Origin: an uncultured Candidatus Saccharibacteria bacterium
GTDB lineage: Bacteria; Patescibacteriota; Minisyncoccia; UBA6257
DNA: 64,000 nt
Direction of reading: 5' to 3'
Assembly (NCBI GenBank): GCA_964479005.1
Contig: CAYZJA010000002.1
Coordinates: forward strand, 1-64,000
Shown: positions 1 to 63,508 of the stretch, piece by piece
How the letters are laid out: each line of letters starts with the position of its first letter
Position numbering within the stretch: the first letter of the stretch is position 1
Notes under the pieces: model-generated
Database searches by the model: none
Seen by the model: the letters and a program-made list of their open reading frames with translations, nothing else
What the model was told of the DNA's origin: nothing
Made by a program: the position numbers and the translations under genes

Positions 1-386
1 TCTTTTTCATGATTTTCAACTTTACTTAAATCTTCCATTCTTGTTTTTGCCACTTCCAAACGAACAACTGGTTTTGTATTTTCAGAAGCAAGATAAATCT
101 TGGTATTCTGAGTCAAAGTTTTTATTGGATATAAAACACTGCCCGGTAAAGTTGTCTGAGCAAAGGCAAAAGAAGAAACTAAAAAGAAAACTAATAAGGA
201 AGGGATGGCTACTTTTTGATACTTAGAAATAAAAGAAAAAACCGCCAGTTTGATTTTTGGCTTATCATATAAGCCGCTTTGCGGTTTGGTCTGTAAAATA
301 TGAGCTTTAAGCCAAAAAGCCCAATCTTGATCGGACTTTATTTGTTTTAAATCTTGTAATTTTTGAATAATGTCTTTTTCCTGCAT
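1..386 (-). CDS. Anti-sigma-factor-like membrane protein with DUF5667-like extracytoplasmic domain (partial; runs off window start)
   Basis: ATG at 386 (RC). Own translation MQEKDIIQKLQDLKQIKSDQDWAFWLKAHIL...KLAVFSFISKYQKVAIPSLLVFFLVSSFAFAQTTLPGSVLYPIKTL... is continuous to position 1. One TM helix, then an LPxS..YP.K motif like the DUF5667 protein at 4388..5371. Lies just downstream of the ECF sigma gene on the same strand. Not in the ORF track because there is no stop inside the window. Confidence 0.5.
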   Translation of the reverse strand, partial: MQEKDIIQKLQDLKQIKSDQDWAFWLKAHILQTKPQSGLYDKPKIKLAVFSFISKYQKVAIPSLLVFFLVSSFAFAQTTLPGSVLYPIKTLTQNTKIYLASENTKPVVRLEVAKTRMEDLSKVENHEK

Positions 387-426
387 AATTTCTTCTACTA
401 CACAAGACGCAGAAAACAAGGATTTG

Positions 427-947: not shown

Positions 948-1898
948 TTAACAATGAAGCTTTGAAATTACTTTAGCCAGTTTCTTTGGGTCGTGGCGGA
1001 GCAATGGCCCTTGCCTTAATAGACGAGTAAAAATCACTTTTGGTTTTTTCCAGGAACTTAGCAATTTTTTATCATATTTAACTGGTCCTGCCTTTTCTTT
1101 ATTATATTTGCCTAAATAATACTTTTTCGGTTTTTCAATATTAACAAGGAAATAGTCAATCATTCCTTTTCCAAGATATTTCTCTAATGTAGCAAAAAAA
1201 TCCTCTGCTGTAAACTTATTTGTCTCCCCATATTTTGTCATAGTATTACAGACATAAACTTTCTTTGCCCGCGATTTCTTTATTGCTTCTTTAATTCCTT
1301 TTACTAAAAAATTGGGAATAATGCTCGTATAAAGGTCGCCAGGCCCGGCAATAATAATATCCGCTTCTTTAATAGCTTTAATAGCTTCTTTATTAGCTTT
1401 AGGCTCTGGATTTAAAAAAACTTCTTCTATAAATAAACTTCCATCATGTTTTGGAACATCAATATTTGATTCTCCCACTACAATAAAATCATTTTCCAAA
1501 CGGGCAAAAAGCCGCGTATAATCCAAAGTTACGGGAATAACTTTTCCTTTAATTCCCAAAATCTTTGACGCTTCTTTAATAGCTTGATTAAAATCGCCTG
1601 TTATTCTTTCTAAAGCAGTAAGAAAAAGATTGCCAAAACTATGGCCTTTTAATCCTGTTCCGTTTTCAAATCTGTAATTAAATAAATTAGCTAAAATCGG
1701 GCTATCAGATGAAAGAGCTACCAATACTCTTCTGATATCTCCTGGTGGTAAGATCCCAAATTCTTCCCGCAAAACTCCTGAAGAACCACCATCATCAGCT
1801 GTTGTGACAATAGCGGTCAAATGAAAGGGATAATCTTTTAAACCAGTTAAAACAGTAAATACACCAGTTCCCCCACCAATAACTACAATTTTTTTCAT
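948..1898 (-). CDS. YvcK/CofD-like gluconeogenesis factor (UPF0052)
   Basis: MKKIVVIGGGTGVFTVLTGLK...TADDGGSSG motif typical of the YvcK/CofD family. Confidence 0.8.
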   Translation of the reverse strand: MKKIVVIGGGTGVFTVLTGLKDYPFHLTAIVTTADDGGSSGVLREEFGILPPGDIRRVLVALSSDSPILANLFNYRFENGTGLKGHSFGNLFLTALERITGDFNQAIKEASKILGIKGKVIPVTLDYTRLFARLENDFIVVGESNIDVPKHDGSLFIEEVFLNPEPKANKEAIKAIKEADIIIAGPGDLYTSIIPNFLVKGIKEAIKKSRAKKVYVCNTMTKYGETNKFTAEDFFATLEKYLGKGMIDYFLVNIEKPKKYYLGKYNKEKAGPVKYDKKLLSSWKKPKVIFTRLLRQGPLLRHDPKKLAKVISKLHC

Positions 1899-4381
1899 AC
1901 TACAAAATTGATGAGTTTGTCTTTAATAAAAATAACTTTTTTTATTTTCTTCTTGCTTAAATATTTTTTTATCAATGAAGAACTTTTTGCTAATTTTTCA
2001 GCTCCTGTTTTATCAACGCCTTTCTTTACTTTTAACTTGGCCCTGATTTTACCATTTATTTGAGCTATTAATATAAAGTTCTTTTCTTCTGTTAAATGGA
2101 ATTTAAAAGTAGGCCATTTTTCCTGTGCAACAGATTTTCGATGTTTTAGATATACATTCCACAACTCCTCAGATAGATGAGGGGCAAATGGGGACAAAAG
2201 CAAAACCAAACTTTCCAAATGTTTCTTATCCACTTTTTCCAAAGGAACCTCATATAACTGATTAACATATTCCATTAAAGAACTAATGGCTGTATTAAAA
2301 TGAAGTTTTTCCAAGTCTTCTGTTACTTTTTTGATGGTTTTATGCCTTGTCTTTTCCAGATTTCTCAAATTCTCTTTTAATTTTCTTTTTGCCTCTGCAG
2401 TCAAAATTAATTTTTTCTTTTCTTTCTTCTTTTTAGATTTTGCACCAATTAATGGATCTTTTTCAGCCACCAAATACCAAACCCGATTAAGAAACCGATA
2501 TATTCCGATAACTCCCTGACTACCCCATGGTTTTGAAAAAGATAAAGGCCCCATAAACATTTCGTACATTCTCAAACTATCAGTTCCATATTTTTTAATA
2601 ATATCATCAGGACTTATTACATTACCCCTTGATTTAGACATCTTTTCTCCGTCTTCACCCAAAATAATGCCTTGATTAATCAAACAAGAAAATGGCTCTA
2701 AAGTAGAAACAACTCCAATATCATAAAGAAATTTATGCCAGAAACGGGCATATAAAAGATGCAAGACCGCATGCTCCACTCCTCCAATATAAATATCAAC
2801 CGGCATCCAGCATTTTTCTTTTTTAATATCAACTAATTTTTTCTTATTCTTTGGATCTAAATAACGCAAAAAATACCATGAAGAGCCTGCCCATTGCGGC
2901 ATTGTATTTACTTCTCTTTTAGCAGGACCTTTACATTTTGGACATTTTACATTTACCCAAGAGGAAATATCCGCTAATGGCGATTCACTCTTTCCACTTG
3001 GTTGATATTTTTTAATTTCAGGCAGTTTTAACGGCAATTCACTCTCCTTTAGAGGCACATTACCGCATTTAGAGCATTTAATTATAGGAATAGGTTCCCC
3101 CCAATATCTCTGACGGGAAAAAATCCAATCTCTTAATTTATAACGGACATTTTTCTTACCTCCAATATAGAGAGCAATTTTTTCCTGGGCTATTTTTGAA
3201 GAAGTACCATTAAACGGCCCGGAATTCATTAATATTCCATCTGATGAAATAACCTCTTTTACTGGCAAACGAAACTGCTCGGCAAATTGAAGGTCCCGTT
3301 CATCATGCGCAGGAACAGCCATTATCGCCCCTGTTCCATAACTCATTAAAACATAGTCAGATACCCAAATCGGCACTCTTTCCCTGTTAGCGGGATTTAT
3401 AGCATACGCTCCAGTAAATACTCCGCTTTTTTCTTTAATTTGAGCTTGCCTTTCAAAATCTGATTTTTGTGAAGCTTGCTCAATATACTTTTTTACTTCA
3501 GAGCTGGAACTTTCTGAAGTAATTTTTTTTATTAAAGGATGCTCTGGCGCTAATACCAAATAAGTAGCCCCAAAAATTGTATCGGTTCTGGTTGTAAAAA
3601 CTTTAATATATTCTTCATGCCCAACAACCTTAAATTCTATATCCACGCCTTCAGAACGGCCAATCCAATTTCTCTGCATTGTTTTTACACGTTCAGGCCA
3701 ATCCAATAGATCCAAATCCTTTAATAATTTATCTGCGTAAGCTGTTATTTTTAAAACCCATTGTTTTAATTTCTTCCTTTCTACTAAAGCACCGCAACGA
3801 TCGCATTTACCTACAACAACTTCTTCATCAGCTAAAACAGTTTTACAAGAAGGACACCAGTTAACAGAAATTTCATCTTCATAAGCTAAGCCGTGTTTAT
3901 AAAGCTGTAAAAATATCCATTGAGTCCATTTATAATAATTAGGATCAGTTGTATTAACTTCTCTCTGCCAATCATAACTAAATCCCATTGCCTGAAGCTG
4001 CTTGCGAAAATATTTAACATTTTTCGCTACTACTTCTTTTGGGTTTTTCTTGGTTTTTATGGCATAATTTTCTGCTGGTAATCCAAAAGCATCCCATCCC
4101 ATTGGGTGTAAAACATCATAACCTTTCATCCGATAATAACGCGACAAAATATCAGAAGCTGTATATCCTTCTATGTGTCCGACATGAAGTCCTTCTCCTG
4201 AAGGATAAGGAAACATATCTAAGATATAGATATGTTTCTTTTTAGGCTTATAAGAACCTTGCTTCGCAAGAACCTTGTTATTCGCCTTTGGCTCATAATC
4301 AGCAGTATGCCAAACTTTATAATTGTTTTTAGCCCAAATATTTTGCCATTTGGGTTCAATTTTATTAGGTTGGTAGGACAT
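1895..4381 (-). CDS. leuS: Leucyl-tRNA synthetase
   Basis: 828 aa with HVGH and KMSKS motifs; PYPSGEGLHVGHIEGYTASD and MGWDAFGLPAENYAIK match class I LeuRS. Confidence 0.95.
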   Translation of the reverse strand: MSYQPNKIEPKWQNIWAKNNYKVWHTADYEPKANNKVLAKQGSYKPKKKHIYILDMFPYPSGEGLHVGHIEGYTASDILSRYYRMKGYDVLHPMGWDAFGLPAENYAIKTKKNPKEVVAKNVKYFRKQLQAMGFSYDWQREVNTTDPNYYKWTQWIFLQLYKHGLAYEDEISVNWCPSCKTVLADEEVVVGKCDRCGALVERKKLKQWVLKITAYADKLLKDLDLLDWPERVKTMQRNWIGRSEGVDIEFKVVGHEEYIKVFTTRTDTIFGATYLVLAPEHPLIKKITSESSSSEVKKYIEQASQKSDFERQAQIKEKSGVFTGAYAINPANRERVPIWVSDYVLMSYGTGAIMAVPAHDERDLQFAEQFRLPVKEVISSDGILMNSGPFNGTSSKIAQEKIALYIGGKKNVRYKLRDWIFSRQRYWGEPIPIIKCSKCGNVPLKESELPLKLPEIKKYQPSGKSESPLADISSWVNVKCPKCKGPAKREVNTMPQWAGSSWYFLRYLDPKNKKKLVDIKKEKCWMPVDIYIGGVEHAVLHLLYARFWHKFLYDIGVVSTLEPFSCLINQGIILGEDGEKMSKSRGNVISPDDIIKKYGTDSLRMYEMFMGPLSFSKPWGSQGVIGIYRFLNRVWYLVAEKDPLIGAKSKKKKEKKKLILTAEAKRKLKENLRNLEKTRHKTIKKVTEDLEKLHFNTAISSLMEYVNQLYEVPLEKVDKKHLESLVLLLSPFAPHLSEELWNVYLKHRKSVAQEKWPTFKFHLTEEKNFILIAQINGKIRAKLKVKKGVDKTGAEKLAKSSSLIKKYLSKKKIKKVIFIKDKLINFVV
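4249..4280 (-). repeat. AGGTTCT direct-repeat element copy, in frame inside leuS
   Basis: ACAAGGTTCTTGCGAAGCAAGGTTCTTAT on the minus strand encodes NKVLAKQGSYK within a lineage-specific insertion in LeuRS. Confidence 0.6.
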
Positions 4382-4387
4382 AAAAAA

Positions 4388-5371
4388 TTAATTGGTAGTT
4401 GTAGCAATTCCTGGCGGTGGTGTTTTTGGTAAACGCCCTTTAGGAATTTTTGGAGTTGGTATTGGTAATACCTTTATAATATTTTCTATAGTGCTAGTAG
4501 CAAAACCCTGTTTTTCCAAAACCTGAACTTTTTGCTGTATCTTATTTTCCAATCTTTCTTTTAACTGTTCTGCTTTAGCCTGAACATGGTCTGAATAATC
4601 TCCTAAATTCGTTTGCTGAAGTTGCTCCTGCATACTATTCATTATTCGTAATTGTCGAAATTCTCCAATCGGCGCAGGTTTTAATGATGGTAATTCTTGC
4701 AATTTGTTCTCCAAACGATTCATAAACTCTTCCTGGTTTTCAAATCTTAAACGAAGAAGAGGCAGAGTTTGATTAATGTTTTGGCGAACTCTTTCAACTT
4801 GAGCAACAGCTTGAGGAACTTTTTCTAAAATCTTATCCAATACCTCTGAATGGCGAATTTCGGCTTCAGTCATTTTATCAAGAAGCTTGTCTATATTCGG
4901 ATTTTCCGAAGTTTCTTTTAATGCCTCCATTCTACCTCTTAATCTGCCCATTGTGTCTGTATAATTATCAAACGCTTTTTCTAAAACTTCTATCTTTGGA
5001 GTTTTTTGAGCCATTACATCTGCCTCAGCTAATTTTTCTGAAAGTATCCGCAGTTGTACTTCGCTCTTTTTTATTGGATCTCTAGTCCACCCTACTTTCA
5101 AACCCCTCCACCATTCTTTCAAAAAATAAAAAGGACTGGTAGGAAGTAATCCTACTCTCTTTAAACCTAATGCTTGAGGTACAGAAAGCTCTTCTTCCTC
5201 TAGCAAAGTCGTTGTGGTTGTATCAATAATCGTAGTGGTCGTAGCATCTCCAACCGTAGTTGTTGTAGCATCAATAACAGTAGTTGTGGTTGTTTCTTCA
5301 GCAAATATCAAATTTGCAGAAACTCCGCTAATTAAACCACAAATTAGCAAACTCAAAATTACTTTCTTCAT
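4388..5371 (-). CDS. Secreted DUF5667-like protein with Thr-run linker
   Basis: Signal peptide, then TTTT repeats (ETTTTTVIDATTTTVGDATTTTIIDTTTTT), then LPTSPFYFLKEW... coiled-coil domain resembling DUF5667. Confidence 0.5.
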   Translation of the reverse strand: MKKVILSLLICGLISGVSANLIFAEETTTTTVIDATTTTVGDATTTTIIDTTTTTLLEEEELSVPQALGLKRVGLLPTSPFYFLKEWWRGLKVGWTRDPIKKSEVQLRILSEKLAEADVMAQKTPKIEVLEKAFDNYTDTMGRLRGRMEALKETSENPNIDKLLDKMTEAEIRHSEVLDKILEKVPQAVAQVERVRQNINQTLPLLRLRFENQEEFMNRLENKLQELPSLKPAPIGEFRQLRIMNSMQEQLQQTNLGDYSDHVQAKAEQLKERLENKIQQKVQVLEKQGFATSTIENIIKVLPIPTPKIPKGRLPKTPPPGIATTTN

Positions 5372-7234: not shown

Positions 7235-10200
7235 TCAGCCCTCTATTGGCTCAATTTCTTCCAATCTTTCCCCAATAATCTGATAACTGCCATTTCTTTT
7301 ATCCATCCTGCCTTCAACCAATAATACTTTGTCTTCTCCAAGCACGGCTAAATTATTAGCTAATACTGCTGGATATAAAACGACTTCAATAGAATTATTA
7401 TAATCAGCCAAGCGCGTAAAAACCATTGGTTTTCCCATTTTTGTTCTTACCTTTTGAATGCGTGAAATAAAACCGCAAACCTTAATTTTTCTTCCAAGAT
7501 GACGAGGGTCTAATTGGCTGACTGTAAGAGCTATTTTACCTAAAACATTTTTATAGCTATCCAAAGGATGACCAGTAAGATAAATGCCTAAATATTCTCT
7601 TTCCCAATTCATTCTTTTTGTTTTGTCAGACGGCTTAATTGAATTATTCCTTTTAAAATGTTCAAGTATATCATCGGACTTACCCTCATTGAACAAACTC
7701 ATTTGCTGGTCGTTTTTATGATTATGAAATCGATAAACCCAATCTAAAATTTCTTCTAAATGATCGGCCATTAATTCTCTATCTCCAAAACAATCTAATG
7801 CTCCGGCTTTAATAAGACTCTCCAAACTCTTTTTATTTAGAGCCTGACGCGGCATTCTTTTTAAAAAATCGGTAAGGTTTTTAAAAATGCCGTTACTTTG
7901 CCTTTCTTCCTGAATCATAGTGGCAACTCCCTCACCTACATTTTTTATGGCTGCTAAACTAAAATAAATATTCCCTGTTTTTTTGTCTGTACCAAATTCT
8001 GCAAAAGATTCATTTACAGAGGGGGGCATTACTTCAATGCCTAATCTCTGACATTCAGCTATTTCAATGGCAATTCTGTCTAAATTACCAAAGTCTGAGG
8101 TCAAAAGAGCAGCCATAAAAGCATTTGGATAATGAGCTTTAAGCCAAGCTGTTTGATAAGTGATGCGCGCGTAAGAAGCGCTATGGCTCTTGTTAAAACC
8201 ATAACGCGCAAAAGGTTCTACCCAAGCCCAAATTTTTTCCGCGACTGACTTCTTAATATTATTCTTTATCATCCCTTCTATTAATTTTTCTTTCTGAGCC
8301 CGTAATAATGTTTTAATCTTTTTACCAACAGCTTTTCTAAGAACATCAGCCTCAGCCATAGAAAAACCTCCCAAATCATGCGCTATTTGCATAAGTTGCT
8401 CCTGATAAATACAAATATTATAGGTTTTTTCTAAAATTGGTTTTAATTTAGGATGAAGGTAAATAATTTTTTCTTTTCCCCTCTTTCTATTAATAAAGGA
8501 TGGAATGAATTCCATTGGCCCAGGACGATACAAAGACAACATGGCTATAATATCTTCAAATTTTGTTGGTTTTAATTCCTGAAGATATCTTCGCATACCC
8601 TGTCCTTCCACTTGAAACAGTCCTACTGTATTTCCATCAGAAAGTAATTTGTAAGCTTTTTTATCTTTATACCCTACTTCATCCAAGTCTATTTCATCGC
8701 CATAAACCTTTTTAATAATTCTTAAAGCATTTTTGATAATGGTTAAATTGGCTAATCCTAAAATATCAATTTTAAGCAATCCAATTTTTTCCAAAGAGTA
8801 CATATCATACTGAGTGATTACCTCTTGGTCATTCCTGCTTGAATGTTGTAAAGGGCTATAATTAACTAAAGGTTCACGGGAAATAACCACTCCAGCGGCA
8901 TGAGTGGAGGCATGACGAGCCACACCCTCTAATTGCTGAGCCATATCAATAATGTCTTGGGCGTCGGTATTGGTTTCATATAATTGCCTAAGCTCTGGGA
9001 CTATACTTAATGCTTTTTTAATTGTTATATTTTGCGGAAGAAGTTTGGAAATTTGATCTCCTAAAGCATATGGATGGCCTAATGCTCTGGTAACGTCGCG
9101 AACAGCCAAACGGGACTTCATTATTCCGAAAGTAATAATCTGAGCCACGTGATTCTGCCCATATTTTTCAGTAATATAATTGATTAAATCCGCTCTTCTA
9201 TTATCAGCAATGTCTAAATCTATATCTGGCGGTTGAATCCTTTCTGGGTTTAAAAAACGTTCAAAATAAAGCCCATGCTCTAATGGGTCAACAGATGTAA
9301 TGCCTAAAACATATGCAATCAAACTTCCAGCTGCAGACCCTCTTGTATTAGTCAATATGCCTTTTTCTTTAGTAAAACGAATAAAGTTCTCAATAATCAA
9401 AAAATAATCGGCAAAACCGGTTTCCTTAATAACATCTAATTCATAATCAAACCTATCTTTAGCTTCTTTATTCTTTAAAGAATATACCTTCTTAAAATTT
9501 TCTAAGGATAATTTTTTTAAATATTGGAAAGAATCTTCTTTTTTAGGTGTAGTAAAATGCGGCAAAATTACTTCTCCAATATCAAGCTCCAAATTGCATT
9601 GCTCAACTATTTTCTTGATATTTTCAAATAATTCAGGGTGGTCAGAAAAATCCTTTGTAATCTCTTCTGGCGATTTAAAATACAATTCCATTTTTTTCAT
9701 ACTCAAACGATCTTCATTTTCAATATCAGTCCCTGTTTGAATTGCCAAAAGAACATCTTGAGCTTCTTTATCTTCTTTTTTAATATAATGAAGATCAGTT
9801 GTTACAATTGCCGGAATATTCAATTCTTTGGAAATTTTCAACAACCCATCATTAATCTTTTTCTGATCTGGCAATTCTGGGTGATGTTGTAATTCTAAAT
9901 AAAAATTATCTTTTTCAAAAATTTTCTGATATTCTTTAGCTAATTCTAACGCTTTTTTAAAATCTTCTACCAAAAGCGCTGAGGGAATTTCGCCTTTTGC
10001 GCATGCTGAAAGCGCAATCAATCCGTCACTATGTTTTTTTAAAACTTCCTTGTCTATACGAGGTTTATAATAAAAACCCTCCAGTTCTCCGATAGTAACC
10101 AGTTTTAATAAATTACGATAACCTGTTTTATTTTTCGCCAAAAGTACAAGATGATATAATTTAGCATCAACTTTTGGCGTTTTATCAGTAAGAGAACGCG

Positions 10201-10411
10201 AAGCTAGATAAACTTCGCAACCAATTATTGGTTTAATCCCCATCTTTTTAGCAAGAGAATAAAATTCTATTGCCCCATACATTACCCCGTGGTCAGTCAA
10301 AGCCAACGCATCCAAACCCATTTCCTTTGCCTGCTTTAAAAGCTGCTCTGGACGGGGCAAGCCATCTAATAAAGAATAGTGGCTATGGACATGAAGATGG
10401 GTAAAATACAT
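7235..10411 (-). CDS. dnaE: DNA polymerase III alpha subunit
   Basis: 1058 aa; N-terminal PHP domain HLHVHSHYSLLDG, polymerase core, OB fold. Confidence 0.95.
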   Translation of the reverse strand: MYFTHLHVHSHYSLLDGLPRPEQLLKQAKEMGLDALALTDHGVMYGAIEFYSLAKKMGIKPIIGCEVYLASRSLTDKTPKVDAKLYHLVLLAKNKTGYRNLLKLVTIGELEGFYYKPRIDKEVLKKHSDGLIALSACAKGEIPSALLVEDFKKALELAKEYQKIFEKDNFYLELQHHPELPDQKKINDGLLKISKELNIPAIVTTDLHYIKKEDKEAQDVLLAIQTGTDIENEDRLSMKKMELYFKSPEEITKDFSDHPELFENIKKIVEQCNLELDIGEVILPHFTTPKKEDSFQYLKKLSLENFKKVYSLKNKEAKDRFDYELDVIKETGFADYFLIIENFIRFTKEKGILTNTRGSAAGSLIAYVLGITSVDPLEHGLYFERFLNPERIQPPDIDLDIADNRRADLINYITEKYGQNHVAQIITFGIMKSRLAVRDVTRALGHPYALGDQISKLLPQNITIKKALSIVPELRQLYETNTDAQDIIDMAQQLEGVARHASTHAAGVVISREPLVNYSPLQHSSRNDQEVITQYDMYSLEKIGLLKIDILGLANLTIIKNALRIIKKVYGDEIDLDEVGYKDKKAYKLLSDGNTVGLFQVEGQGMRRYLQELKPTKFEDIIAMLSLYRPGPMEFIPSFINRKRGKEKIIYLHPKLKPILEKTYNICIYQEQLMQIAHDLGGFSMAEADVLRKAVGKKIKTLLRAQKEKLIEGMIKNNIKKSVAEKIWAWVEPFARYGFNKSHSASYARITYQTAWLKAHYPNAFMAALLTSDFGNLDRIAIEIAECQRLGIEVMPPSVNESFAEFGTDKKTGNIYFSLAAIKNVGEGVATMIQEERQSNGIFKNLTDFLKRMPRQALNKKSLESLIKAGALDCFGDRELMADHLEEILDWVYRFHNHKNDQQMSLFNEGKSDDILEHFKRNNSIKPSDKTKRMNWEREYLGIYLTGHPLDSYKNVLGKIALTVSQLDPRHLGRKIKVCGFISRIQKVRTKMGKPMVFTRLADYNNSIEVVLYPAVLANNLAVLGEDKVLLVEGRMDKRNGSYQIIGERLEEIEPIEG

Positions 10412-13434: not shown

Positions 13435-13451
13435 ATGCTTTAATTATTTTT

Positions 13452-13500
13452 GAACGAAGTGAGAAAACAAGGTTCTTGAGCGAAGCGAGAGGTTCTTATT
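13452..13500 (+). repeat. AGGTTCT direct-repeat element copy
   Basis: GAACGAAGTGAGAAAACAAGGTTCTTGAGCGAAGCGAGAGGTTCTTATT. Confidence 0.7.
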
Positions 13501-13547
13501 AAAGTTATTTTAAGTATACATCAAAAAAAATATCTCGCCAATAATAT

Positions 13548-27737: not shown

Positions 27738-27980
27738 ATTGTTGTGTTTTTCTAATCTACCACAAAAGATGATAGGAATCAAGAAGTTTAAAAACACTAC
27801 GACTGAAAAGCCGTAGTGTTGCAGTGGGACTTGTCCTCAAATACGAGAACATTTATTATATTATCACATTATATAAACTAAAGTCAACCTTTCCCTGTAT
27901 TTTTACCCCCACACCATAATAAACACTCAGTGCTTCGCACTAAAAATACAAAGTATGTGCTCATTTGGTGTGGGGGTTTA

Positions 27981-30358: not shown

Positions 30359-31381
30359 CTATTTTTTTGTAATTTGCTTCAAAAGTTCTTTTCCAATTTT
30401 AGAATTTTCTTTTAAAAACGTTCGCGCTGTTTCAAATCCTGCCCCCAATTTTATCTCACCAAAACTGTAAGTTATTCCTCTTTTCGTAATAATGCCTTCT
30501 TTAACCCCCATATTTAATAAGTCGCCGTGATAAGAAATACCTTCGTTATAAAGAATATCAAATTCTGTTTCCCTGAAAGGCGGAGCAACTTTATTTTTTA
30601 CTACCTTTGCCTTTATGCGCGAACCTATTATTTCATCTCCTTTCTTTATTTGCGCTCTTTTCTTTAATTCTATTCTGACTGACGAATAAAACTTCAGGGC
30701 TTTCCCTCCTGTGGTAGTAACGGGATTACCAAACATCATCATTCCTATTTGCATTCTTGTTTGATTAGTAAAAATAATTGCCGTATTACTTTTATGCGTT
30801 ATGGCGGCTAATTTCCTTAAGGCTCTGCTCATTAATCGAGCTTGTAATCCAATCTGTTGATCGCCCATTTCCCCTTCTATTTCAGCTTTTGGAGTTAATG
30901 CTGCCACTGAATCAACAATGATTAAATCTATTGCTCCTGAACGAACCAAAACTTCTACTATATCCAATGCCTGTTCTCCATTATCAGGTTGAGATATCAA
31001 TAATTCTTTTGTTTTTACTCCAATTTTATTGGCATATTCTGGATCAAGGGCATGCTCTGAATCAACAAAAGCCGCCTTTCCCCCTTTTTTTTGAATTTCA
31101 GCCACAATATGAAGAACTAAAGTAGTTTTTCCAGAAGATTCAGCGCCATAAATCTCGATAACCCTTCCTCGTGGAATACCACCTACTCCTAAAGCCAAAT
31201 CTAATGACGGTGAGCCTGTAGGAATAACATCAATATCAACCTTCCTAACTCCACCGAGCCTCATTATTGTACCTTCACCAAATCTTTCTTGAAGATCACT
31301 CATTACCTGATCTAAAACATCTCCATCTTTTTCAGAAGAATTAGATTTGCCTTTTTTCTCTTTATTTAAAGATTTAACCAT
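30359..31381 (-). CDS. recA: Recombinase RecA (start placed at the internal ATG; the track start is a TTG at 31399)
   Basis: Walker [11 protein letters not shown] plus L1/L2 loop regions. Confidence 0.95.
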
Positions 31382-31397
31382 AGAAGAATCTTTATTC

Positions 31398-31430
31398 AAA
31401 GAACCTGCTCGCTCTGCTCGCAGAACCTTG
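31398..31430 (-). repeat. AGGTTCT direct-repeat element copy immediately upstream of recA
   Basis: Minus strand CAAGGTTCTGCGAGCAGAGCGAGCAGGTTCTTT. Confidence 0.6.
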
Positions 31431-31522
31431 AAATTAAAATATTCTATTTTAATTATAAGCTATATTAACAGTTCTAAAAAGATATCGCAACTCAAAAATT
31501 ATTTATAACTGCTCATATTCAA

Positions 31523-32191
31523 TTATTCAATAACAGCATAAATGATTTGCCGGACTAAAACGGTTTCATATCCTAAAATATTTACTGCTCTAAATTGAAT
31601 ATTATTAATGCCTGGCGCAAGAACAATTTTTTCATCAAATGAACCATCCTTCTCAAAAGAAATTTCCTGATCTTTAATAAAAAATCTTTTCCCGCGAATT
31701 ACTTTTCCAGAAATTAGTAGTTCTGCCTGATTCGTAGTAAAATCACGATCTGGTGAATAAAGAATAACTTTAGCGGGAAGAATAAAAGAACTAGCTTCAT
31801 AGATAAAATAAAATAAAATAAATCCCCAAAAAAAATATTTTAATATTTTTGGAGAAATATTTTTAAAAAAAGAAACAAATTTTGATTGATAAGTTAAAAA
31901 CCTATTTTTAGGAAGTAAATCGTATTTACCAGAAGATAAATCTCTCCCATTGCTTTTTTGATAAAGCCCAAGAACTTTTTCCTTGTCTAATTTTAAAAAA
32001 TTGGCATATTTTTTAATCACGCCCTTCAAATAAACCGGCGGTGGTAAATTCTCATATTCATCATTTTCTAAATCTTTAAGTATGGATAATAAAATTTTTG
32101 TTTCTTCAGAAACTTTTTCTAAAGACCATCCTTTTTCCTGGCGCATTTTTTTTAAAAAAGCGCCGCATAATAAGCTTTCTTTATCGTTCAT
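31523..32191 (-). CDS. RodZ-like HTH membrane protein
   Basis: N-terminal XRE-type HTH, single TM, C-terminal extracytoplasmic domain. Confidence 0.5.
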   Translation of the reverse strand: MNDKESLLCGAFLKKMRQEKGWSLEKVSEETKILLSILKDLENDEYENLPPPVYLKGVIKKYANFLKLDKEKVLGLYQKSNGRDLSSGKYDLLPKNRFLTYQSKFVSFFKNISPKILKYFFWGFILFYFIYEASSFILPAKVILYSPDRDFTTNQAELLISGKVIRGKRFFIKDQEISFEKDGSFDEKIVLAPGINNIQFRAVNILGYETVLVRQIIYAVIE

Positions 32192-35088: not shown

Positions 35089-36630
35089 TTAACGGCTGGC
35101 TAATTCTTTAAGATAAGAAATATCCCTTTCATACCTATCAGCTATCGCCAGTACATTATCTCCGTAAAAACGATAACGTGTATTTGTGGATCCAGAAAAA
35201 TAAATCATCGCCGCGCGCCACTCTGCATCCCTTGTTTGTTTAGCTGCCCCCCATCTGGATAAATATAAAGCAGCGGCAACAAAAGCATCTCTAATATCCC
35301 AAGGATTAGCAGGATTATTACCTGTGATTTTACTCACCTTATCTTTGTAAATCATCCATGTTGAGGGGATAAATTGAGCCGGACCCATTGCTCCGCCCCA
35401 ACCAACCTGTTTTCCACTTCTAAACATTGGGCAGGAGACAGGAGTTGTGTTAGGATCTAATCCCAATTCCCTGCAAACTTGTAAAAATGGTTGTTGATCC
35501 CTGCTTGGTTTCATTATCTCTCTCCAGCTTTTACTCGGAGGATCCCCAGGACGGTTACAAGTTCCTACATTCTGTCCTAAATTAGATTCCTGAGTCAAAA
35601 TTGCTAAAAGAAAAGCTGGCCTTACTCCAGTACGACTACTTACCCAATTGGCTATTTCCAATGCTTCACCAAAAGTAACTTGAGTTTTTACCCCAATTAA
35701 CTGATAAATACGCGCTCTAATCTCATTCGCTTTTTGCCTTGATTCAGACAACATTTGCTGATACTTATCTTCGTTTCCATCAGTAATATGCCAAAGATCA
35801 ACTTTTTCACTCTCTGTTCTATTTAAATCATTTTTCTGGAGCAACTGCATTGCTAATAAGTTTTGAGTTTCATCCTTGTCACTGCTTAATTCTTGATTTT
35901 GCTTATTTAAAGTTAGCTTTAAGGCTTCAAGCTCTTCAATACTTTCTTGAATCCTTTCCTGAATATTATTAAGAGCATTGGAATAATCAAAAAACTCGCT
36001 TATTGTCCCTGACCCCAACAGTATTTCTAAGAGCGACACCTGCTTTAATTGATAAAAAGATTGTAAAGAATTTGTTAAATTTTCTTTTGTTGCCCCTACT
36101 TTATCAATAGTTTTAATAATAGAAGTTGTCGTTTCATCAATTCTTACATCAAGATATTGCAAATTGAGATTGGTAGATTTGATTTGAAGGCTTAATTTTG
36201 ACGCCCTGCTTCTTAATTCATTAATTTTATTTTGAAGGGTCTGCTTTTCCTGTTTTGTCGTAACTATTAATTTTTCATATTCGGCTATTTCTTTTTCAAC
36301 TGATGCTAACTCTTCCTCTAATTTAGCCCGCTCTTCATCATATAGAGCTTCTGCTTCTTTTGATTGAAAAAAGATTGGCGCTGTTACGCTGGATTGAATA
36401 ATGGAAAAAAGAAAAAAAGAAAAAATTAATAACGAAACAAATCTTTGTCTTGTTATTTTCGAACGAAGTGAAAAAACAAGGTTCTGCGGACAGAGTGCGC
36501 AGGTTCTTATTTTTTTCCCTTTAGAAAAAAAGGGTGGAATAAATATTTTTCTCTTGTTTTCTACAATTTCTTTTTTAAAAGGAAAGGAAATATCTTTAAC
36601 CTTCTTTCTAGAAATAGACTTAATAACCAT
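35089..36630 (-). CDS. Membrane-anchored coiled-coil protein with C-terminal MltB/Slt35-like lytic transglycosylase domain
   Basis: TM helix, about 250 aa of coiled coil, then C-terminal ILTQESNLG ... GAMGPAQFIPSTW (the G.MQF.PSTW family motif). Confidence 0.65.
   Translation of the reverse strand: MVIKSISRKKVKDISFPFKKEIVENKRKIFIPPFFSKGKKIRTCALCPQNLVFSLRSKITRQRFVSLLIFSFFLFSIIQSSVTAPIFFQSKEAEALYDEERAKLEEELASVEKEIAEYEKLIVTTKQEKQTLQNKINELRSRASKLSLQIKSTNLNLQYLDVRIDETTTSIIKTIDKVGATKENLTNSLQSFYQLKQVSLLEILLGSGTISEFFDYSNALNNIQERIQESIEELEALKLTLNKQNQELSSDKDETQNLLAMQLLQKNDLNRTESEKVDLWHITDGNEDKYQQMLSESRQKANEIRARIYQLIGVKTQVTFGEALEIANWVSSRTGVRPAFLLAILTQESNLGQNVGTCNRPGDPPSKSWREIMKPSRDQQPFLQVCRELGLDPNTTPVSCPMFRSGKQVGWGGAMGPAQFIPSTWMIYKDKVSKITGNNPANPWDIRDAFVAAALYLSRWGAAKQTRDAEWRAAMIYFSGSTNTRYRFYGDNVLAIADRYERDISYLKELASR
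36461..36512 (+). repeat. AGGTTCT direct-repeat element copy, antisense within the N-terminal coding region of the 35089..36630 gene
   Basis: GAACGAAGTGAAAAAACAAGGTTCTGCGGACAGAGTGCGCAGGTTCTTATT. Confidence 0.7.
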
Positions 36631-43651: not shown

Positions 43652-46600
43652 TTATGGAATAGTAGTTGTGGTTACCTCTGGAACAATTGGCGGAATATTT
43701 ATAAAAATTATTTTAGGAATTTCTGATTTTAACCCTTCACTGTCTTGAGCTTTGATACCAAAAAACACATCAAGGGAAACACCAGGTAATCTTTTCTTTT
43801 CTATATAACGTAAATCATCGATAGATACTTGAAGTCGAAGTTTATTTTCTTGAGCATTCAAAGTTGGTTCCCCTAAAACATTTTGAGATTGAGAGTATCT
43901 CCATGATTGTCGTGTTAAATCGTTGTTCTCTGAACCATCTCCTTGTTTGGCAAAAACATAATGAATATCATATTTTAAAATATCTTTTGGATCTTCATCC
44001 GAAGCTGGCGTCCAAGAAAAAATTAAATTATTACAATCTTCATTATCGCATTCCACTTCAAAATTTTTGACATTAGTTGGTTGATGATAATAATTTGAGG
44101 AATAAAAATAAAATTTAGTATCATCATAAGCAATTAATTTCAAATAAGACCGAATATTTTTAGCATATCCATAATAACCAATTGTTATATATTGATCAGG
44201 AGTAAAATTTAAACCTTGACCATGAGTAGTCCCTATAACATCAACAACAAAATGATTATCGCTAGATAATTTGTCTATTCTATAGGATAGTTTTCTCGGA
44301 ACAGCAGAGCCAGCTGCCATTTTTTCATCAGCAGTGAAAATTATACTTCCTACTTTTTGAGTATCACCAACATAATTAGGATAAGATAATAATAATCCAG
44401 GAGTATTGCTATATAATTCCCAGTCATTTTTACCACCTAAATAACCTGTTGGAATGCCAAAATTTGCTGAAGGATCATCAAAATCTGAGTGGAGATAGAA
44501 CACCATCGCCGTAAAAATATTGCTCGTATGATTTGTTGAAGGAATAAAAGGATAAGAATTAATTCTAAAATCAATTACTATTTTGGGAGAATCTTTCTCA
44601 AAAGGATGCCAAGAAAATTCAGTAATATAAGGTATTGTCGGCGCTGCAGGAGTAGTGGTTGTTGGGATGAAACAATCATTAGAAGAAAAACTTTTGGGAC
44701 TGGGACAATTTTGAATTTCAAAATCATCGGCATTATTATCAGAGTCCAAAAAATTACCATCTATATACTTTCTTTGAATGCTTTGACTTGGTTCAGGATT
44801 TATCGCGCAATTAACCTCACAATCATTTGCTTCTCCATAACCAATTTTATCTACTATTTCTCTATTGGGATTCTTTAGAATAATAGTATTATTATTAGTA
44901 AGACTATAATTAGAGACTAAAACATCGGCTATCTCTGTATAAGTACTTGAAGAATGAGTAATCAATAAATATCCAAAGGAACTAATAACTTTTTCTGCTA
45001 ACAAATGAGCTGGTACTAAAGAAGAAAATTCTTGACTATTTTGGGTTTTCTTTTGAATATACCAATCAGTTAAATCTACATCATTATCATTGGGATTATA
45101 AAGTTCTATAAATTCATCTTTTGTAAGAGTTTTTGCCTCAGAGTCCAACCCAGCAATTTTTATCTCATTAATTAGAATTTTAGGAAAAACAATGGGGGGT
45201 AATGTTGTTGTTGTAGTAGTAGTAGTTGTTGTTGTAGTAGTAGTTTGCGAAGATGGAGTTGAACCCCCTCCGCCGCCTGAAGAAATAATCACAGGTTGAC
45301 TATTCTCCCTTTTGGGTGTGCCCAAAATACCATTTTGTTCTACACCACCATAGGTATGCCATGATAAATTATTGCCTCTTTCCATTGTCCGTTTTTGAGA
45401 ATTATTTCCTGCTGACCAATCCAAATCAGCTAAAACTTCATCTTGAAGCTGACAATTACTATCAAATAAACGAAGTCCTTCATCAGCATTATTAAGGACC
45501 CCTGCATAAATATGATCTGCAATCACAAAAGGAATAGAACTATCATCTGTTCTTTCCAAAAGATAAAAACCATGAGCAGCTATTTTACTGCCTTGCTCAA
45601 AAACAATTTTAATTTGTTCTTTTTTATCTATTAGCTGCCAATTAGAAATATCTATTTCATGTGAAGAAATATTTTTTAATTCTATCCACTCGTCATTGGC
45701 ACTATTTTGGGTTCCCATCCAAGCTAGTTCACTAATAATTATTTTATTTCTTAATGTGGCTTGGGTAGTATTAAAAGAACAAAAATTGGGGCTAAGAGTA
45801 GTTGTTGTGGTTAGTTTAGTTGTTGTAGTAGTTGGTTTGGTAGTGGTGACAGTGAGTTTGGTAGTTGTTGTAAATAACTTAGTAGTAGTCGTGGTTTGTT
45901 TAGTAATGGTTGGTGATTTGGTAGTAGAAGGTTGATATTTTATTGTGGTGGTTGTGGTAATTTGGGAAAGAGTAGTCGGAGAAAAAGATAAGCTGGTGTC
46001 TGAAGCATCTGGGGGACTATGTGGAATTTCTGTTTCTTCAATCAAAACATATTCGGGATTTCTTTGAAAAATATCATTAATAAAATCAGAAAGACCACTT
46101 ATCATAGCTGTCAACACATTTTTTTCATTCTTTGATATAAAATCAGGCTTAGATTTTGCCCTTGCAACTTCTTGAAAAAATAAATCAATAACTCCAGCAC
46201 CAGTTAAAACTACCCTTTTAGAAAGCCTTTCCCAGTACTCCTGAAGAACTTGATCATCTTCTAATGAAAAAATCGTGGGGCCGGAAGTTAATCGCCATCC
46301 TATATTATTTTTTAAAATAAGCGCTAAATGAAAAATATTATGGTTTTCGTCTTCTCCTAGTACATAGAAAATTAATTTTCCATTTATTAACTCAGGTACT
46401 TCAGAAAAAACAGGCTGCGGCAATTTATATTTTGAACCCGAAATCGTATCGGGACTATAAAAGTAATTATTAGAATAAAGAGCAATTTCATCAAAATATT
46501 CGTCAAGGTTAACCCTTCTAACAGGTTTCAGATTTTCGATACTCTTTCGTGTTTGTTCGTAAAAATCTTTATTATTTTTAGCTGTATAGGATTCATAAGG

Positions 46601-59250: not shown

Positions 59251-59310
59251 GTCAAATTTTAATTGGCATTAAAATATAGCGTCAAATTTTAATTGGCATT
59301 AAAATATAGG
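59251..59310. repeat. Tandem 30-bp direct duplication (29/30 identical) spanning the dnaN stop
   Basis: GTCAAATTTTAATTGGCATTAAAATATAG[C/G] twice; the second copy encodes the dnaN C-terminus ..MPIKI*. Confidence 0.8.
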
Positions 59311-60418
59311 AAAAGCTATCATCAGATTTCCCATGAATCAAGCCGGGATTAATTTCTTTATTTAATTTAATAATAATTTCATCTTCTTTAATTGAATGCA
59401 ATCCATCTAATAAGAAATGATAATTAAAACTAATCTTTAATGGATTTCCACTTATATCTTCGGGGGTAAGAACTGTATGGCTTTTCCCCAAAGAAGGGTC
59501 TTGAGCCTCAATAACAATTTCCTTTTTCGATGAATTAAAATCAAACATAACGTCATTTATCCTCCCGCTAAATAAGCCAATAATTTTAACGGCCTCAATT
59601 AATTTCTTTCTATTTAAAATTGTCTGATTTTCAAAATTAGACGGAATTATTGAAGAATATTTTGGGTATTCAGCATTAATAAGCCTGGATATTAAGCGAA
59701 CATTATTTAATGAAAACTGAATTTGATTAGGTTCTGGAAAAATCTTTACTACACTACTAACTTCCTCCATCTCTTCTTGAATAATTCTTAGAACTTCTTG
59801 CGCTGTTCTTAATGGAATTATTATTTCTAAATTATCTTTTATATTAGTTTTAATTTTTTGGGATAAAATATTCTTTTCTGCCAAACGGAAACTATCAGTG
59901 CCAACTAATTTTAAAACGCTTTTTGAAGTATCGTTTTCTAATTTGAATAAAATACCATTCAATTCTGGTTTTGGAGAAGTATAACCAACACTCGGAATTA
60001 CTTGTTCTAATGCTTCTTCAAGGTCCTTTTTTTCTATTTCTATATATCTTTCTGTTTTTGTTTCTGGAATAATTGGAAATTCATCGGGATTTATTCCTTG
60101 AAAGGTCGTATTATAATTCCCACTTTTTACTGATAGAATATTTTTACTTTCTTCAATTGTAATTTTTTCTTCTGATAAATTATTCAAAAACATAGAAAAA
60201 GTTTTTGCTGGAATGATAAATTTTCCTTCTTTTTCCACTTTTCCTGTGATGATTAATTCAATTCCAATTTCCAAATCAGTGGCCAAAAGATGGAGCTTAT
60301 TTTTATTTGTTTTTAAAAGGATATTACTCAAAATAGGGAGTGTAAGATTTTTCCCTGTAATTTTTTCTGCTAAATTAATAGATTTTTTAAAATTATCGAC
60401 TAAAGTGATAAATTTCAT
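59282..60418 (-). CDS. dnaN: DNA polymerase III beta sliding clamp
   Basis: Three-domain clamp, 378 aa, immediately downstream of dnaA. Confidence 0.9.
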   Translation of the reverse strand: MKFITLVDNFKKSINLAEKITGKNLTLPILSNILLKTNKNKLHLLATDLEIGIELIITGKVEKEGKFIIPAKTFSMFLNNLSEEKITIEESKNILSVKSGNYNTTFQGINPDEFPIIPETKTERYIEIEKKDLEEALEQVIPSVGYTSPKPELNGILFKLENDTSKSVLKLVGTDSFRLAEKNILSQKIKTNIKDNLEIIIPLRTAQEVLRIIQEEMEEVSSVVKIFPEPNQIQFSLNNVRLISRLINAEYPKYSSIIPSNFENQTILNRKKLIEAVKIIGLFSGRINDVMFDFNSSKKEIVIEAQDPSLGKSHTVLTPEDISGNPLKISFNYHFLLDGLHSIKEDEIIIKLNKEINPGLIHGKSDDSFSYILMPIKI

Positions 60419-60672
60419 ATTTTTATACTAATTATTATTTATATATTATATATATTAATATGTTATTATAATTAAGGACGGATATTTTGTGCATAAATGA
60501 TTTTTTAAAGGTAGTATTGGTTATTAATGATTCTTTAAATGGATAACTAGTGAATAATTAATGAATAATTTGGAGAAAACATGGGGATAGTAATTTAATT
60601 TTCGATTTTTAATTTTCAATTCTCAATTTTATCAAGTGTTTACACCTTATTTTATCAACAATATATCCACCA
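60419..60672. other. oriC part 1: AT-rich unwinding region plus DnaA-box-like sites between dnaA and dnaN
   Basis: AT-only stretch 60421..60475; boxes TGTGcATAA, TTATCaACA, aTATCCACc, tGGATAA. Confidence 0.55.
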
Positions 60673-62055: not shown

Positions 62056-62261
62056 AATATTTACATTCTATAGTATAACAACCTTTCGTTTTACTCAAGA
62101 ACGTTGAAATTGAAATGTACGCATTTCCATTATAAAAATAAAATTTAGTTTCTGCAAGAAAATCATTCTCTTTTGGGGATAAACTGTTGATAATCAGTGG
62201 GTTTGATATTTAACGTATATTTTGGTATGCTGTTCTAGATTTAAATTTAATATTTATTGCT
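62056..62261. other. oriC part 2 / dnaA-rpmH divergent promoter region with DnaA boxes
   Basis: TGgGGATAA and TGTtGATAA boxes (8/9 each) at about 62175..62194. Confidence 0.5.
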
Positions 62262-62396
62262 ATGTCGATTACTTATCAGCCAAAAAAGAAAAAGAGATCA
62301 CGCGCCCATGGATTTTTAAAAAGAATGTCTTCTAAGGGAGGAAAAAAAGTTATTAGTCAACGGAGGCAAAAAGGAAGAAAAAAATTAACTCCTTAA
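62262..62396 (+). CDS. rpmH: Ribosomal protein L34
   Basis: Own translation [44 protein letters not shown] (44 aa); below the ORF-track cutoff. Confidence 0.85.
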
Positions 62397-62399
62397 GTA

Positions 62400-62735
62400 A
62401 TGCTTAAAAAGAAAAACAGAATTACATCTTCTGTTGCTTTTAAAGAGATTTTTACTAAAGGTAATGTAAAAGAAAACGAGTGTTTTAAAATTATCTTCAA
62501 AAAGAGTGATTTAGACTATCCGAGGTATGGAATTATTGTTAAGGCTCAAAATAGTAAGTCAGCTGTACAAAGGAATGCTTTAAAAAGAAGAATTAGAGAT
62601 ATACTTAGAAATTCTTTGTTGGTTTTTCCAAAAGGATTTGATGTTGTGATTGTTACGAAGAGAAATTGTTTAAATATGAATTTCTCAAAGCTGAAAGAAT
62701 CTCTTGGTGAATTATTATTAAAACTATTTAAATAA
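62400..62735 (+). CDS. rnpA: RNase P protein component
   Basis: Basic RnpA motif ALKRRIRD; sits between rpmH and yidC. Confidence 0.85.
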   Translation: MLKKKNRITSSVAFKEIFTKGNVKENECFKIIFKKSDLDYPRYGIIVKAQNSKSAVQRNALKRRIRDILRNSLLVFPKGFDVVIVTKRNCLNMNFSKLKESLGELLLKLFK

Positions 62736-63434: not shown

Positions 63435-63460
63435 TTTTGAGCAAAGCCACGTTTAACGTG

Positions 63461-63508
63461 GCAAAGTGAGAAACAAGGTTCTGTGAACAAAGTAAACAGG
63501 TTCTTATT
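63461..63508 (+). repeat. AGGTTCT direct-repeat element copy ending at the jag ATG
   Basis: GCAAAGTGAGAAACAAGGTTCTGTGAACAAAGTAAACAGGTTCTTATT, preceded by the palindrome GCCACGTTTAACGTGGC. Confidence 0.7.

Follow-up and report, generated by a model that had tools for sequence, protein, structure and literature searches.

A two-hairpin element of about 50 nt, almost certainly mobile, inserted in frame in leuS of a Candidatus Saccharibacteria genome

The window analyzed here comprises 64,000 nt of an uncultured Candidatus Saccharibacteria bacterium (GCA_964479005.1, contig CAYZJA010000002.1, positions 1–64,000 of the forward strand). Its leucyl-tRNA synthetase (LeuRS) gene, leuS, was found to carry a 48-nt insertion that is recent, exact, and in frame and leaves its flanks unaltered. 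The insert is a full canonical copy of a dispersed two-hairpin element, not a partial footprint, and the element is almost certainly mobile, its in-frame entry into leuS being recent. Taken as a whole, the leuS insert is probably best explained by a non-autonomous mobile element, about 50 nt long, that entered the gene very recently.

The leuS insertion and the architecture of the element

The host gene (1895..4381, minus strand; 828 aa) was identified as leuS from its open reading frame (ORF) and translation, from an AlphaFold2 model, and from homologs carrying PF00133, PF09334, PF13603, and PF08264, many of which are named leucine--tRNA ligase in Paceibacteria/Parcubacteria genomes of the candidate phyla radiation (CPR). 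A preliminary description of this DNA had flagged a minus-strand repeat at 4249–4280, AACAAGGTTCTTGCGAAGCAAGGTTCTTAT, read in frame as NKVLAKQGSY inside LeuRS, in a segment about 13–18 aa longer than the E. coli or Thermus LeuRS loop; the repeat is present as described, and alignment with Thermus LeuRS 1h3n opens 17 gap positions across the segment. It had further proposed that a miniature insertion element had entered this essential gene in frame. This reading is right, because close relatives have an exact 48-nt gap, with neither the additional residues nor the motif in their DNA, the element copy is complete, and presence/absence differences occur at six other sites. The extent of the insertion was only partly captured: the flagged repeat belongs to it, but the unit is larger, covering 48 nt at 4251..4298 (minus strand, junction ±1 nt) and including an upstream hairpin first taken as ordinary coding sequence.

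The insertion encodes 16 aa (YEPKANNKVLAKQGSY, LeuRS residues 29–44) that are missing from 120 of the 120 nearest LeuRS cluster representatives (58–92% identity), all of which read ...WH(T/S)xD|KPKKKHIYILDMFPYPSG at the insertion point. Because the homolog database was clustered at 90% identity, the exact 828-aa protein was also looked up; it is on record (P0241) from three contigs at NCBI and JGI, the longest of 551,616 bp. Of the 14 others listed from its own 90% cluster (32 members), 13 lack the insert and one (P0243) is a fragment that stops short of the region; the closest among the members listed, P0247 (812 aa, 94.3% aa identity), reads VWHTAD|KPKKKHIYIL. At the DNA level, exactly 48 nt are absent from four relatives (L001–L003 and L137). 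In the closest genome, GCA_964618625.1 (locus L137), the flanks are 100% identical to the window over 97 nt upstream and 51 nt downstream, and the empty site reads ...ACTGCTGA|TAAGCC.... In the AlphaFold2 model (overall predicted local distance difference test (pLDDT) score 86, predicted template modeling score (pTM) 0.82), residues 30–45 form one of just two segments with pLDDT below 50, modeled as a disordered loop between the N-terminal helix and strand 50–55, ahead of the HIGH motif. The copy may be tolerated by virtue of its 48-nt length, its open frame, and this disordered surface position before strand β1.

The complete leuS unit consists of hairpin 1 (4278..4298, minus strand), read as TTAT-GA-GCC-AAA-GGC-GA-ATAA (outer stem, tandem G.A, inner stem, AAA loop), then C, then hairpin 2 (4252..4276, minus strand; AAGGTTCT-TGC-GAA-GCA-AGGTTCTT), in which invariant arms flank a GCGAAGC-type mini-hairpin, and a final A. 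It fits the family architecture, TTAY-GA-GC-GNA-GC-GA-RTAA followed by C-AAGGTTCT-[variable stem-loop]-AGGTTCTTA, in which hairpin 1 is variable and consists of a stem, a tandem G.A, a short stem, and a GNA loop, and the module after it has invariant arms. Units are 45–55 nt long, with 37–94 nt among variants, and their lengths modulo three (10:18:18) reveal no preference for multiples of three. This suggests that selection filters the copies persisting in genes and that the 48- and 54-nt coding copies are survivors.

Conservation of the secondary structure was assessed on 104 distinct hairpin 2 spacers, taken without a structural prefilter. Their mean contiguous closing stem measured 3.5 bp versus 0.6 bp in shuffled sequences, an inner stem of at least 3 bp was present in 75% of spacers versus 5% of shuffles, and each of the stem positions 1–4 displayed all four Watson–Crick types. 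The outer and inner stems of hairpin 1 are paired in 84–96%, with covariation, the outer stem occurring as TTAT/ATAA, TTAC/GTAA, TTTC/GAAA, TTGT/ACAA, and TTCC/GGAA. In an alignment of 26 units, pairing holds in 97.1% of cells and both partners have changed in 10 of the 18 pairs, a result matched by none of 500 shuffles, slid controls giving 33–48%; since these units were chosen as well formed, the 104-spacer test is the fairer one. The stems are thus kept by compensatory changes, and the AGGTTCT arms, which display no covariation, are fixed. Hairpin 2 loops are mostly C-GNA-G (CGAAG in 15 spacers, CGCAG in 6, CGTAG in 4). The d(GCGAAGC) mini-hairpin melts at 76.5 °C and the related RNA r(GCGAAAGC) at 39 °C (PMC13037366); the far greater stability of C-GNA-G loops as DNA than as RNA favors selection on folded DNA.

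Rfam 15, applied at the gathering score to the window and seven loci, returned tRNAs and an FMN riboswitch alone and no family for the element, and a search of four canonical copies at E ≤ 10 gave nothing relevant. A hammerhead-like interpretation of hairpin 1 (GA..stem..GAA) was rejected, the CUGA core being missing by eye and Rfam giving no match. An informal comparison also revealed no match to integron attC core sites, dif/Xer sites, or DnaA boxes.

Within the window, 3 occurrences of CAAGGTTCTT were counted where 0.26 would be expected, and AGGTTCT was found 20 times (expectation 7.6), a count attained in 0 of 100 shuffles; direct AGGTTCT..AGGTTCT pairs spaced by 16–22 nt are found at 15 sites versus 3.4 in shuffles. 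A covariance model (R1) was built from the 26 units, which come from many genomes and include the window leuS and c13 copies. Its unfiltered search of the window detected exactly six copies (27–61 bits), about one per 11 kb, the next match scoring 16.6 bits (E 0.27). The leuS copy, coding and in sense orientation, scored best (60.9 bits; match 4248–4301, minus strand) and belongs to the training set, as does c13 (13447..13498, plus strand; match 13445–13501; 60.0 bits), located between the L11 gene and gatB, antisense to both, and absent in L002. The third copy, c31 (31398..31455, minus strand; match 31395–31452; 27.3 bits), lies in sense orientation in the recA 5′ leader; it is 58 nt long, has a 10-bp hairpin 1, ends in CTTT, and was compared with L138. 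Copy c63 (63435..63506, plus strand; match 63432–63506; 36.4 bits), 72 nt long with 21 additional nt in the hairpin 1 loop, occupies the whole yidC–jag spacer from the yidC stop codon to 2 nt short of the jag ATG. The degenerate c62 (62076..62132, minus strand; match 62073–62135; 30.3 bits), with arms ACGTTCT and AGGTTGT, sits directly 5′ of dnaA in the origin region. The genes dnaN and dnaA and an rnpA-like gene (59282–62400), together with a change of GC-skew sign, place the replication origin near 62 kb.

The remaining copy, c36 (36456..36509, plus strand; match 36453–36512; 57.4 bits, outside the training set), is a 54-nt in-frame antisense insertion adding 18 aa, KIRTCALCPQNLVFSLRS. Its host ORF (35089–36630, minus strand) encodes an SLT_2 lytic transglycosylase, with the insertion in the N-terminal tail. 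Orthologs P0125–P0131 and many others are empty (...LFLSK|GQKITRQR...), the 18 extra residues are common to the window protein, P0122, P0123, P0124, and P0132, and P0130 and P0140 have a 9-aa remnant, QNLVFSLRS. Because the closest relative has c36 and lacks the leuS copy, the two insertions must be of different age.

Insertion junctions, turnover, and distribution

Seven filled sites were compared with empty counterparts. The leuS junction reads CTGA[TTATGA...CTTA]TAAG. In a tRNA-Arg(CCU) gene of an Acutalibacteraceae metagenome-assembled genome (MAG), the sequence TTTATTA[TTACGA...CTTA]TATCC was compared with an intact neighboring copy of the gene. At c13, the window reads AATTA[TTTTTGA...CTTA]TT against an empty L002, and L002 in turn has a double copy at ATTA|TTT in the 3′ end of gatB, where the window and L003 are empty; this tandem pair (L002 2066–2176) replaces the last gatB codons and provides a new stop codon. 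The c31 site reads GCTTA[TAATT...TTCTTT]GAAT against an empty L138, which carries, 50 nt from the c31 site, a different, oppositely oriented copy that the window lacks. Between the L31 and S2 genes, L138 reads TTCCTTA[ATTTGA...CTTA]TGATAC and the window TTCCTGA|TGATAC. Six of the seven junctions conform to T(T/G)A|T, with the element sitting between A and T.

The termini of the element, TTAYGA... and ...GGTTCTTA, form no terminal inverted repeats, and there is no target duplication beyond a junction ambiguity of 1–3 nt, which is caused by the similar ends of element (...CTTA) and flank (...TTA). The ambiguity leaves room for a 2-bp duplication; nothing longer fits. With its 3′ end (CTTA|T), the element restores the target, in keeping with the many copies arranged head to tail in tandem (L002, L014, L045, L070, L071, L079, L091–L093, and L105).

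Across about 44 kb compared with the closest relative (94% LeuRS identity), five presence/absence differences and one shared site were counted; the leuS, c31, and c13 copies are found only in the window (c13 judged by its absence from L137) and two copies only in the relative. The recA leader (L138 15060–15240; window 31340–31560) received independent insertions in the two closest genomes, and c13 and the first L002 copy are near-identical at non-orthologous sites. Since copies differ between close relatives, turnover is high, and the element is active, or was very recently, in this lineage. In the L31/S2 spacer, the window (~27880–27960) also contains a segment of about 70 nt, bounded by a long inverted repeat, CCCCCACACCA...TGGTGTGGGGG, that is missing in the closest relative; it may represent a terminator or a small insert of a different kind.

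To describe the distribution, species-representative genomes were scanned with the pattern CAAGGTTCT-N9-17-AGGTTCTTAT (19 specified bases), which yielded at least 120 loci. Among the matches listed, the CPR carriers were Saccharibacteria and Nealson-, Shapiro-, Pacei-, Parcu-, and Blackburnbacteria; the others included many Clostridia (Acutalibacteraceae, Ruminococcaceae, Fimenecus), some gammaproteobacterial MAGs, Desantisbacteria, and Leptospira adleri. In the same matches, the spacer was palindromic in nearly all and the hairpin 1 module was present in most. Complete genomes with the element include the 551,616-bp contig of P0241, CAZUBI010000001.1, and CP179887.1. Such invariance of the AGGTTCT arms across phyla is unusual, because repeats resembling repetitive extragenic palindromic (REP) sequences are normally species-specific. 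In 2.9 million viral contigs, the pattern gave 13 matches; one is genuine, and the other 12, with non-palindromic spacers inside coding repeats, are apparently due to chance. This near-absence serves as a specificity control and indicates that the element is not phage-borne. A blastn search of annotated phages detected no element, and a plasmid search returned partial hairpin 1 look-alikes alone (E~1), in unannotated Acinetobacter plasmid DNA. In the Acinetobacter baumannii plasmid pA85-2 (L139, 8455–8600), several GAGCG(A/T)AGCGA modules precede CAAGTTTCT; they resemble decayed hairpin 1 units and are conserved in about 186 Acinetobacter plasmids.

A canonical copy (L017 248–306) with a hairpin 2 spacer near that of c63 is found on a 2.6-kb contig labeled Candidatus Pacearchaeota (a DPANN archaeon); this implies either mis-binning of the contig or a range of the element that extends to archaea. 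In Leptospira adleri, a cultured spirochaete, the same hairpin 2 core is part of a longer, 87–94-nt non-coding repeat (L023, L110, L119). The long shared flanks of these copies raised the possibility of an insertion sequence (IS) end, which was rejected, the unit being the 87–94-nt repeat itself. This species could offer an experimentally tractable host.

Thirteen of the 105 independent sites lie inside ORFs of at least 150 aa, seven in sense and six in antisense orientation. They include copies in putative PBP1A, MurB, Era/Der-type GTPase, and TatD genes and in a gene of L026, host proteins that were assigned by eye from conserved motifs. The PBP1A copy has the context ...MVGSKDYF[GAQAQKQGSAEQSEAGSY]FDK...RQPGSSIKP, the PBP1A insert of L106 measures 18 aa, and a protein of L026 contains KNKVLPKAGSYK, which is almost the LeuRS peptide. 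The element thereby adds peptides to essential enzymes (LeuRS, PBP1A, MurB, the GTPase, TatD, and the lytic transglycosylase) and so offers a tangible origin for insertions that are frequent in CPR proteins and have had no explanation. For annotation and alignment it is a hazard, and it also provides a ready strain-level marker. CPR/Patescibacteria genomes are very small and usually deemed poor in mobile DNA; here, an element of about 50 nt turns over fast.

In at least eight Clostridial species, the same point of the tRNA-Arg(CCU) D-loop (TTTATTA|TATCC) is occupied, antisense to the tRNA and with species-specific hairpin 2 stems (L093, L014, L024, L033, L041, L081, L095, and L104). The Acutalibacteraceae MAG locus (L093 1–1000) contains tandem tRNA-Arg(CCU) genes, one intact (331–402, plus strand) and the others interrupted by one or two copies. 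This occupancy raises the question of whether the tRNAs are dead, tolerated, or processed.

Candidate mechanisms of mobility

As for the mechanism, we tentatively propose single-strand movement by means of a trans-acting HUH-type enzyme. The element would move as a folded single DNA strand, and an unlinked enzyme of the HUH type (Y1 or Y2), recognizing hairpin 2 and its AGGTTCT flanks, would cut and rejoin this strand at TTA|T, much as in IS200/IS605 peel-and-paste or rolling-circle elements. HUH chemistry in trans is indicated because the short fixed target equals the 3′ end of the element, the termini are not inverted, no clear duplication is seen, the imperfect hairpins are strand-specific and have DNA-type loops, and head-to-tail arrays occur.

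Several of these traits are common to IS200/IS605 ends and palindrome-associated transposable elements (PATEs): termini without inversion, no target duplication, insertion beside a short motif that is similar to the 3′ end of the element itself, subterminal hairpins whose mismatches confer strand specificity, and head-to-tail arrays. As in PATEs, insertion occurs 3′ of a fixed short motif, here T(T/G)A|T at six of the seven junctions. TTAT is also the target of IS606. The element differs in having cleavage points at the hairpin feet instead of 10–19 nt away, no TnpA partner with these ends, dissimilar hairpins, and no replication-strand bias by the proxies described below. Helitrons and IS91 elements likewise enter between A and T with no duplication, their ends are asymmetric with a hairpin just inside the 3′ end, and they frequently form tandem arrays; they are of kilobase scale, encode a Y2 Rep or Rep/helicase, and carry the signatures 5′-TC...CTRR-3′ or GTTC/CTTG. 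When tested, our element was found to share with them the A|T insertion alone, its ends being TTAY...CTTA and no Rep-like ORF being found near the copies.

Several observations weigh against this proposal. In DNA nearest-neighbor folding, the arms stay single-stranded, the z-scores are non-significant, and the two strands are not separated. Hairpins 1 and 2 are unlike each other, whereas IS200/IS605 ends have similar hairpins. The c31 junction is A|G with the element end CTTT, and the recA-leader copy of L138 is followed by an extra 10-nt local duplication, TAACTGCCTA, unexplained by a simple insertion rule. The scan pattern itself fixed both arms and TTAT, so that part of their constancy in the copies it retrieved is a product of the search; copies outside the pattern selection (c62, the first L002 copy, and L138 15120) carry single arm substitutions. 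All-against-all clustering of 1707 ORFs from the loci revealed no recurrent neighbor, Pfam analysis of 149 ORFs within 1.2 kb of copies returned housekeeping families and no recurring transposase, integrase, or nuclease, and the window encodes no HUH or other transposase and no Y1_Tnp. The lagging-strand-template bias typical of IS608 is absent by both proxies for replication direction, the orientation of the 105 sites being 42:48 by gene direction and 38:50 by GC skew. This removes one IS608-type hallmark and at the same time argues against a sense-strand RNA function.

No TnpA-encoding parent element was detected in the 120 loci, viral contigs, phages, or plasmids. Without a linked transposase, the mobilizing enzyme becomes a well-posed, testable question. 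More speculatively still, the copies might represent an undescribed cross-phylum family and the smallest known bacterial mobile elements, for which an invariant module of about 30 nt (AAGGTTCT-stem-loop-AGGTTCTTA) would suffice; such a family, with no linked or recognizable transposase of its own, might exploit a conserved host single-strand DNA enzyme and would repeatedly colonize essential genes in frame, as well as tRNA genes, in CPR, whose genomes are the most reduced among bacteria. Literature searches and a term search of a HUH-superfamily survey, together of incomplete coverage, returned no prior description of the element.

The alternatives were weighed against the same evidence. That the element is a classical MITE (a miniature transposable element with inverted repeats), moved by a DDE transposase with a 2-bp (AT or TA) duplication hidden in the junction ambiguity, appears unlikely. 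The leuS, tRNA-Arg, and L002 gatB junctions are compatible with an AT duplication, and TA/TTA targets are typical of IS630/Tc1 and IS5/Harbinger-type MITEs. However, an AT duplication fails at c31 and a TA duplication at leuS, the ends TTAYGAG... and ...AGGTTCTTA are not complementary as those of a classical MITE would be, and no DDE transposase is found near the copies. At 45–55 nt, the double-stranded element would also be very short for a DDE synaptic complex.

An RNA route is improbable to a similar degree, whether as mobility through an RNA intermediate (reverse splicing, reverse transcription) or as an RNA acting in the transcript (mini-intron, ribozyme, mRNA-stabilizing hairpin). One argument in its favor lies in the arms, which can pair on the top strand alone, through G.T/T.T/T.G, the other strand offering A.C/A.A/C.A; RNA parameters pair them in a strand-specific manner (G.U/U.U/U.G), and several copies reach z of about −2.4 to −3.0. 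Among RNA motifs, tandem G.A pairs are frequent, and four of the six window copies are in sense orientation just 5′ of start codons. Yet neither the 105 sites nor the coding copies show an orientation bias, GNA triloops are favored in DNA and not in RNA, and Rfam gave no family or ribozyme match even at E ≤ 10. The compared coding copies are multiples of three with an open frame (leuS 48 nt, c36 54 nt, L106 PBP1A 18 aa), which splicing would make needless. Mobile hairpin elements of mitochondria, reportedly described by Paquin et al. in 2000, provide the closest precedent in form. The double-hairpin elements (DHE) of Allomyces, repetitive hairpin elements (RHE) of sponges, and GC clusters of yeast are one- or two-hairpin units of tens of nt in spacers, rRNA genes, and at times in frame in protein genes; they produce no target duplications and have no known mobilizing enzyme, and an RNA route was proposed for those of Allomyces (PMC2800124). 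They differ in being organellar and lineage-specific and have no sequence in common with our element. The literature searched yielded no counterpart in bacteria that is conserved across phyla.

It is a little harder still to regard the element as a REP sequence spread by a REP-associated tyrosine transposase (RAYT, TnpA-REP), although it is a small imperfect palindrome with many copies per genome, falls within the REP size range (21–65 nt), and would share the presumed single-strand HUH chemistry of REPs and REPINs. By definition, REPs carry a conserved tetranucleotide, GT[AG]G or CGTC, at their 5′ hairpin foot, and they are species-specific (PMC6006769). In contrast, the feet of our element read ..TAAC/AAAC/AATC before AAGGTTCT, its sequence is conserved across at least 120 loci of several phyla, and its copies also occur inside long ORFs and tRNA genes instead of being extragenic only. 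Y1_Tnp (RAYT-like) genes do occur in three of the 120 loci (L018 3841–4734; L004 3347–4032; L045 3790–3850 and 4560–4600), from Saccharibacteria, Clostridia, and Shapirobacteria MAGs. Each is flanked by its own, different inverted repeats (e.g., AAAATAGGGACGTGCACTTTTT) and not by the element in a REPtron arrangement, so the co-occurrence is incidental and was rejected as evidence of a RAYT association; it counts against an HUH partner of this kind as well. The three have the appearance of true REPtron-like units of CPR genomes and bear no relation to the AGGTTCT element.

Origin without transposition, by hairpin-driven gene conversion, illegitimate recombination, or template switching from another copy, is very improbable. 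No enzyme was found in the searches above, one copy has the adjacent 10-nt local duplication, and slippage could yield tandem copies; however, whole units with the same boundaries are found at seven unrelated sites with the same T(T/G)A|T junction, and the flanks lack the homology to other copies that conversion would need. Finally, an ordinary lineage-specific LeuRS extension whose motif match is due to chance or to an assembly artefact has in its favor only the prior that loops of aminoacyl-tRNA synthetases differ in length, and it can be dismissed, given the 94.3%-identical relative with the same flanks lacking exactly 48 nt, the fit of the insert to the family model over its full length, and the recovery of the protein from three contigs.

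Relation to Rickettsia palindromic elements and additional observations

By analogy, the element appears closest in behavior to Rickettsia palindromic elements (RPEs), in form to the mitochondrial (double-)hairpin elements, and in inferred chemistry to REP/RAYT and IS200/IS605; it fails defining features of RPEs, REPs, IS200/IS605, and MITEs alike. Insertion of RPEs in Rickettsia genes was reportedly described by Ogata et al. in 2000. Both are non-autonomous palindromic repeats in intergenic and coding positions of a reduced genome, with no known transposase, and our element shares the in-frame residence in housekeeping genes (LeuRS, SLT_2 transglycosylase, PBP1A, MurB, GTPase, TatD). RPEs are 100–150 bp long and occur in intergenic and coding regions, being in frame in housekeeping genes including PheT (PMC1779305). 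They are confined to Rickettsiales, whereas the present element, at 45–55 nt and apparently of different sequence, is built of two hairpins, has direct AGGTTCT arms that do not vary, and is found in CPR, Firmicutes, and other phyla. It provides a second instance of the RPE phenomenon, one that arose independently in another lineage with reduced genomes.

Two further features were observed outside the element. The dnaE gene of one relative (L003 2430–6734) encodes 1434 aa with an intein (PF14890 Intein_splicing, NUMOD3), and dnaE of the window (7235–10411, 1058 aa) has none. On the plus strand of the window, GTAGTTGTTGT-type tandem repeats at 5208–5293 and 45180–45930 encode poly-threonine linkers in a minus-strand DUF5667 protein and in a 1170-aa surface protein.

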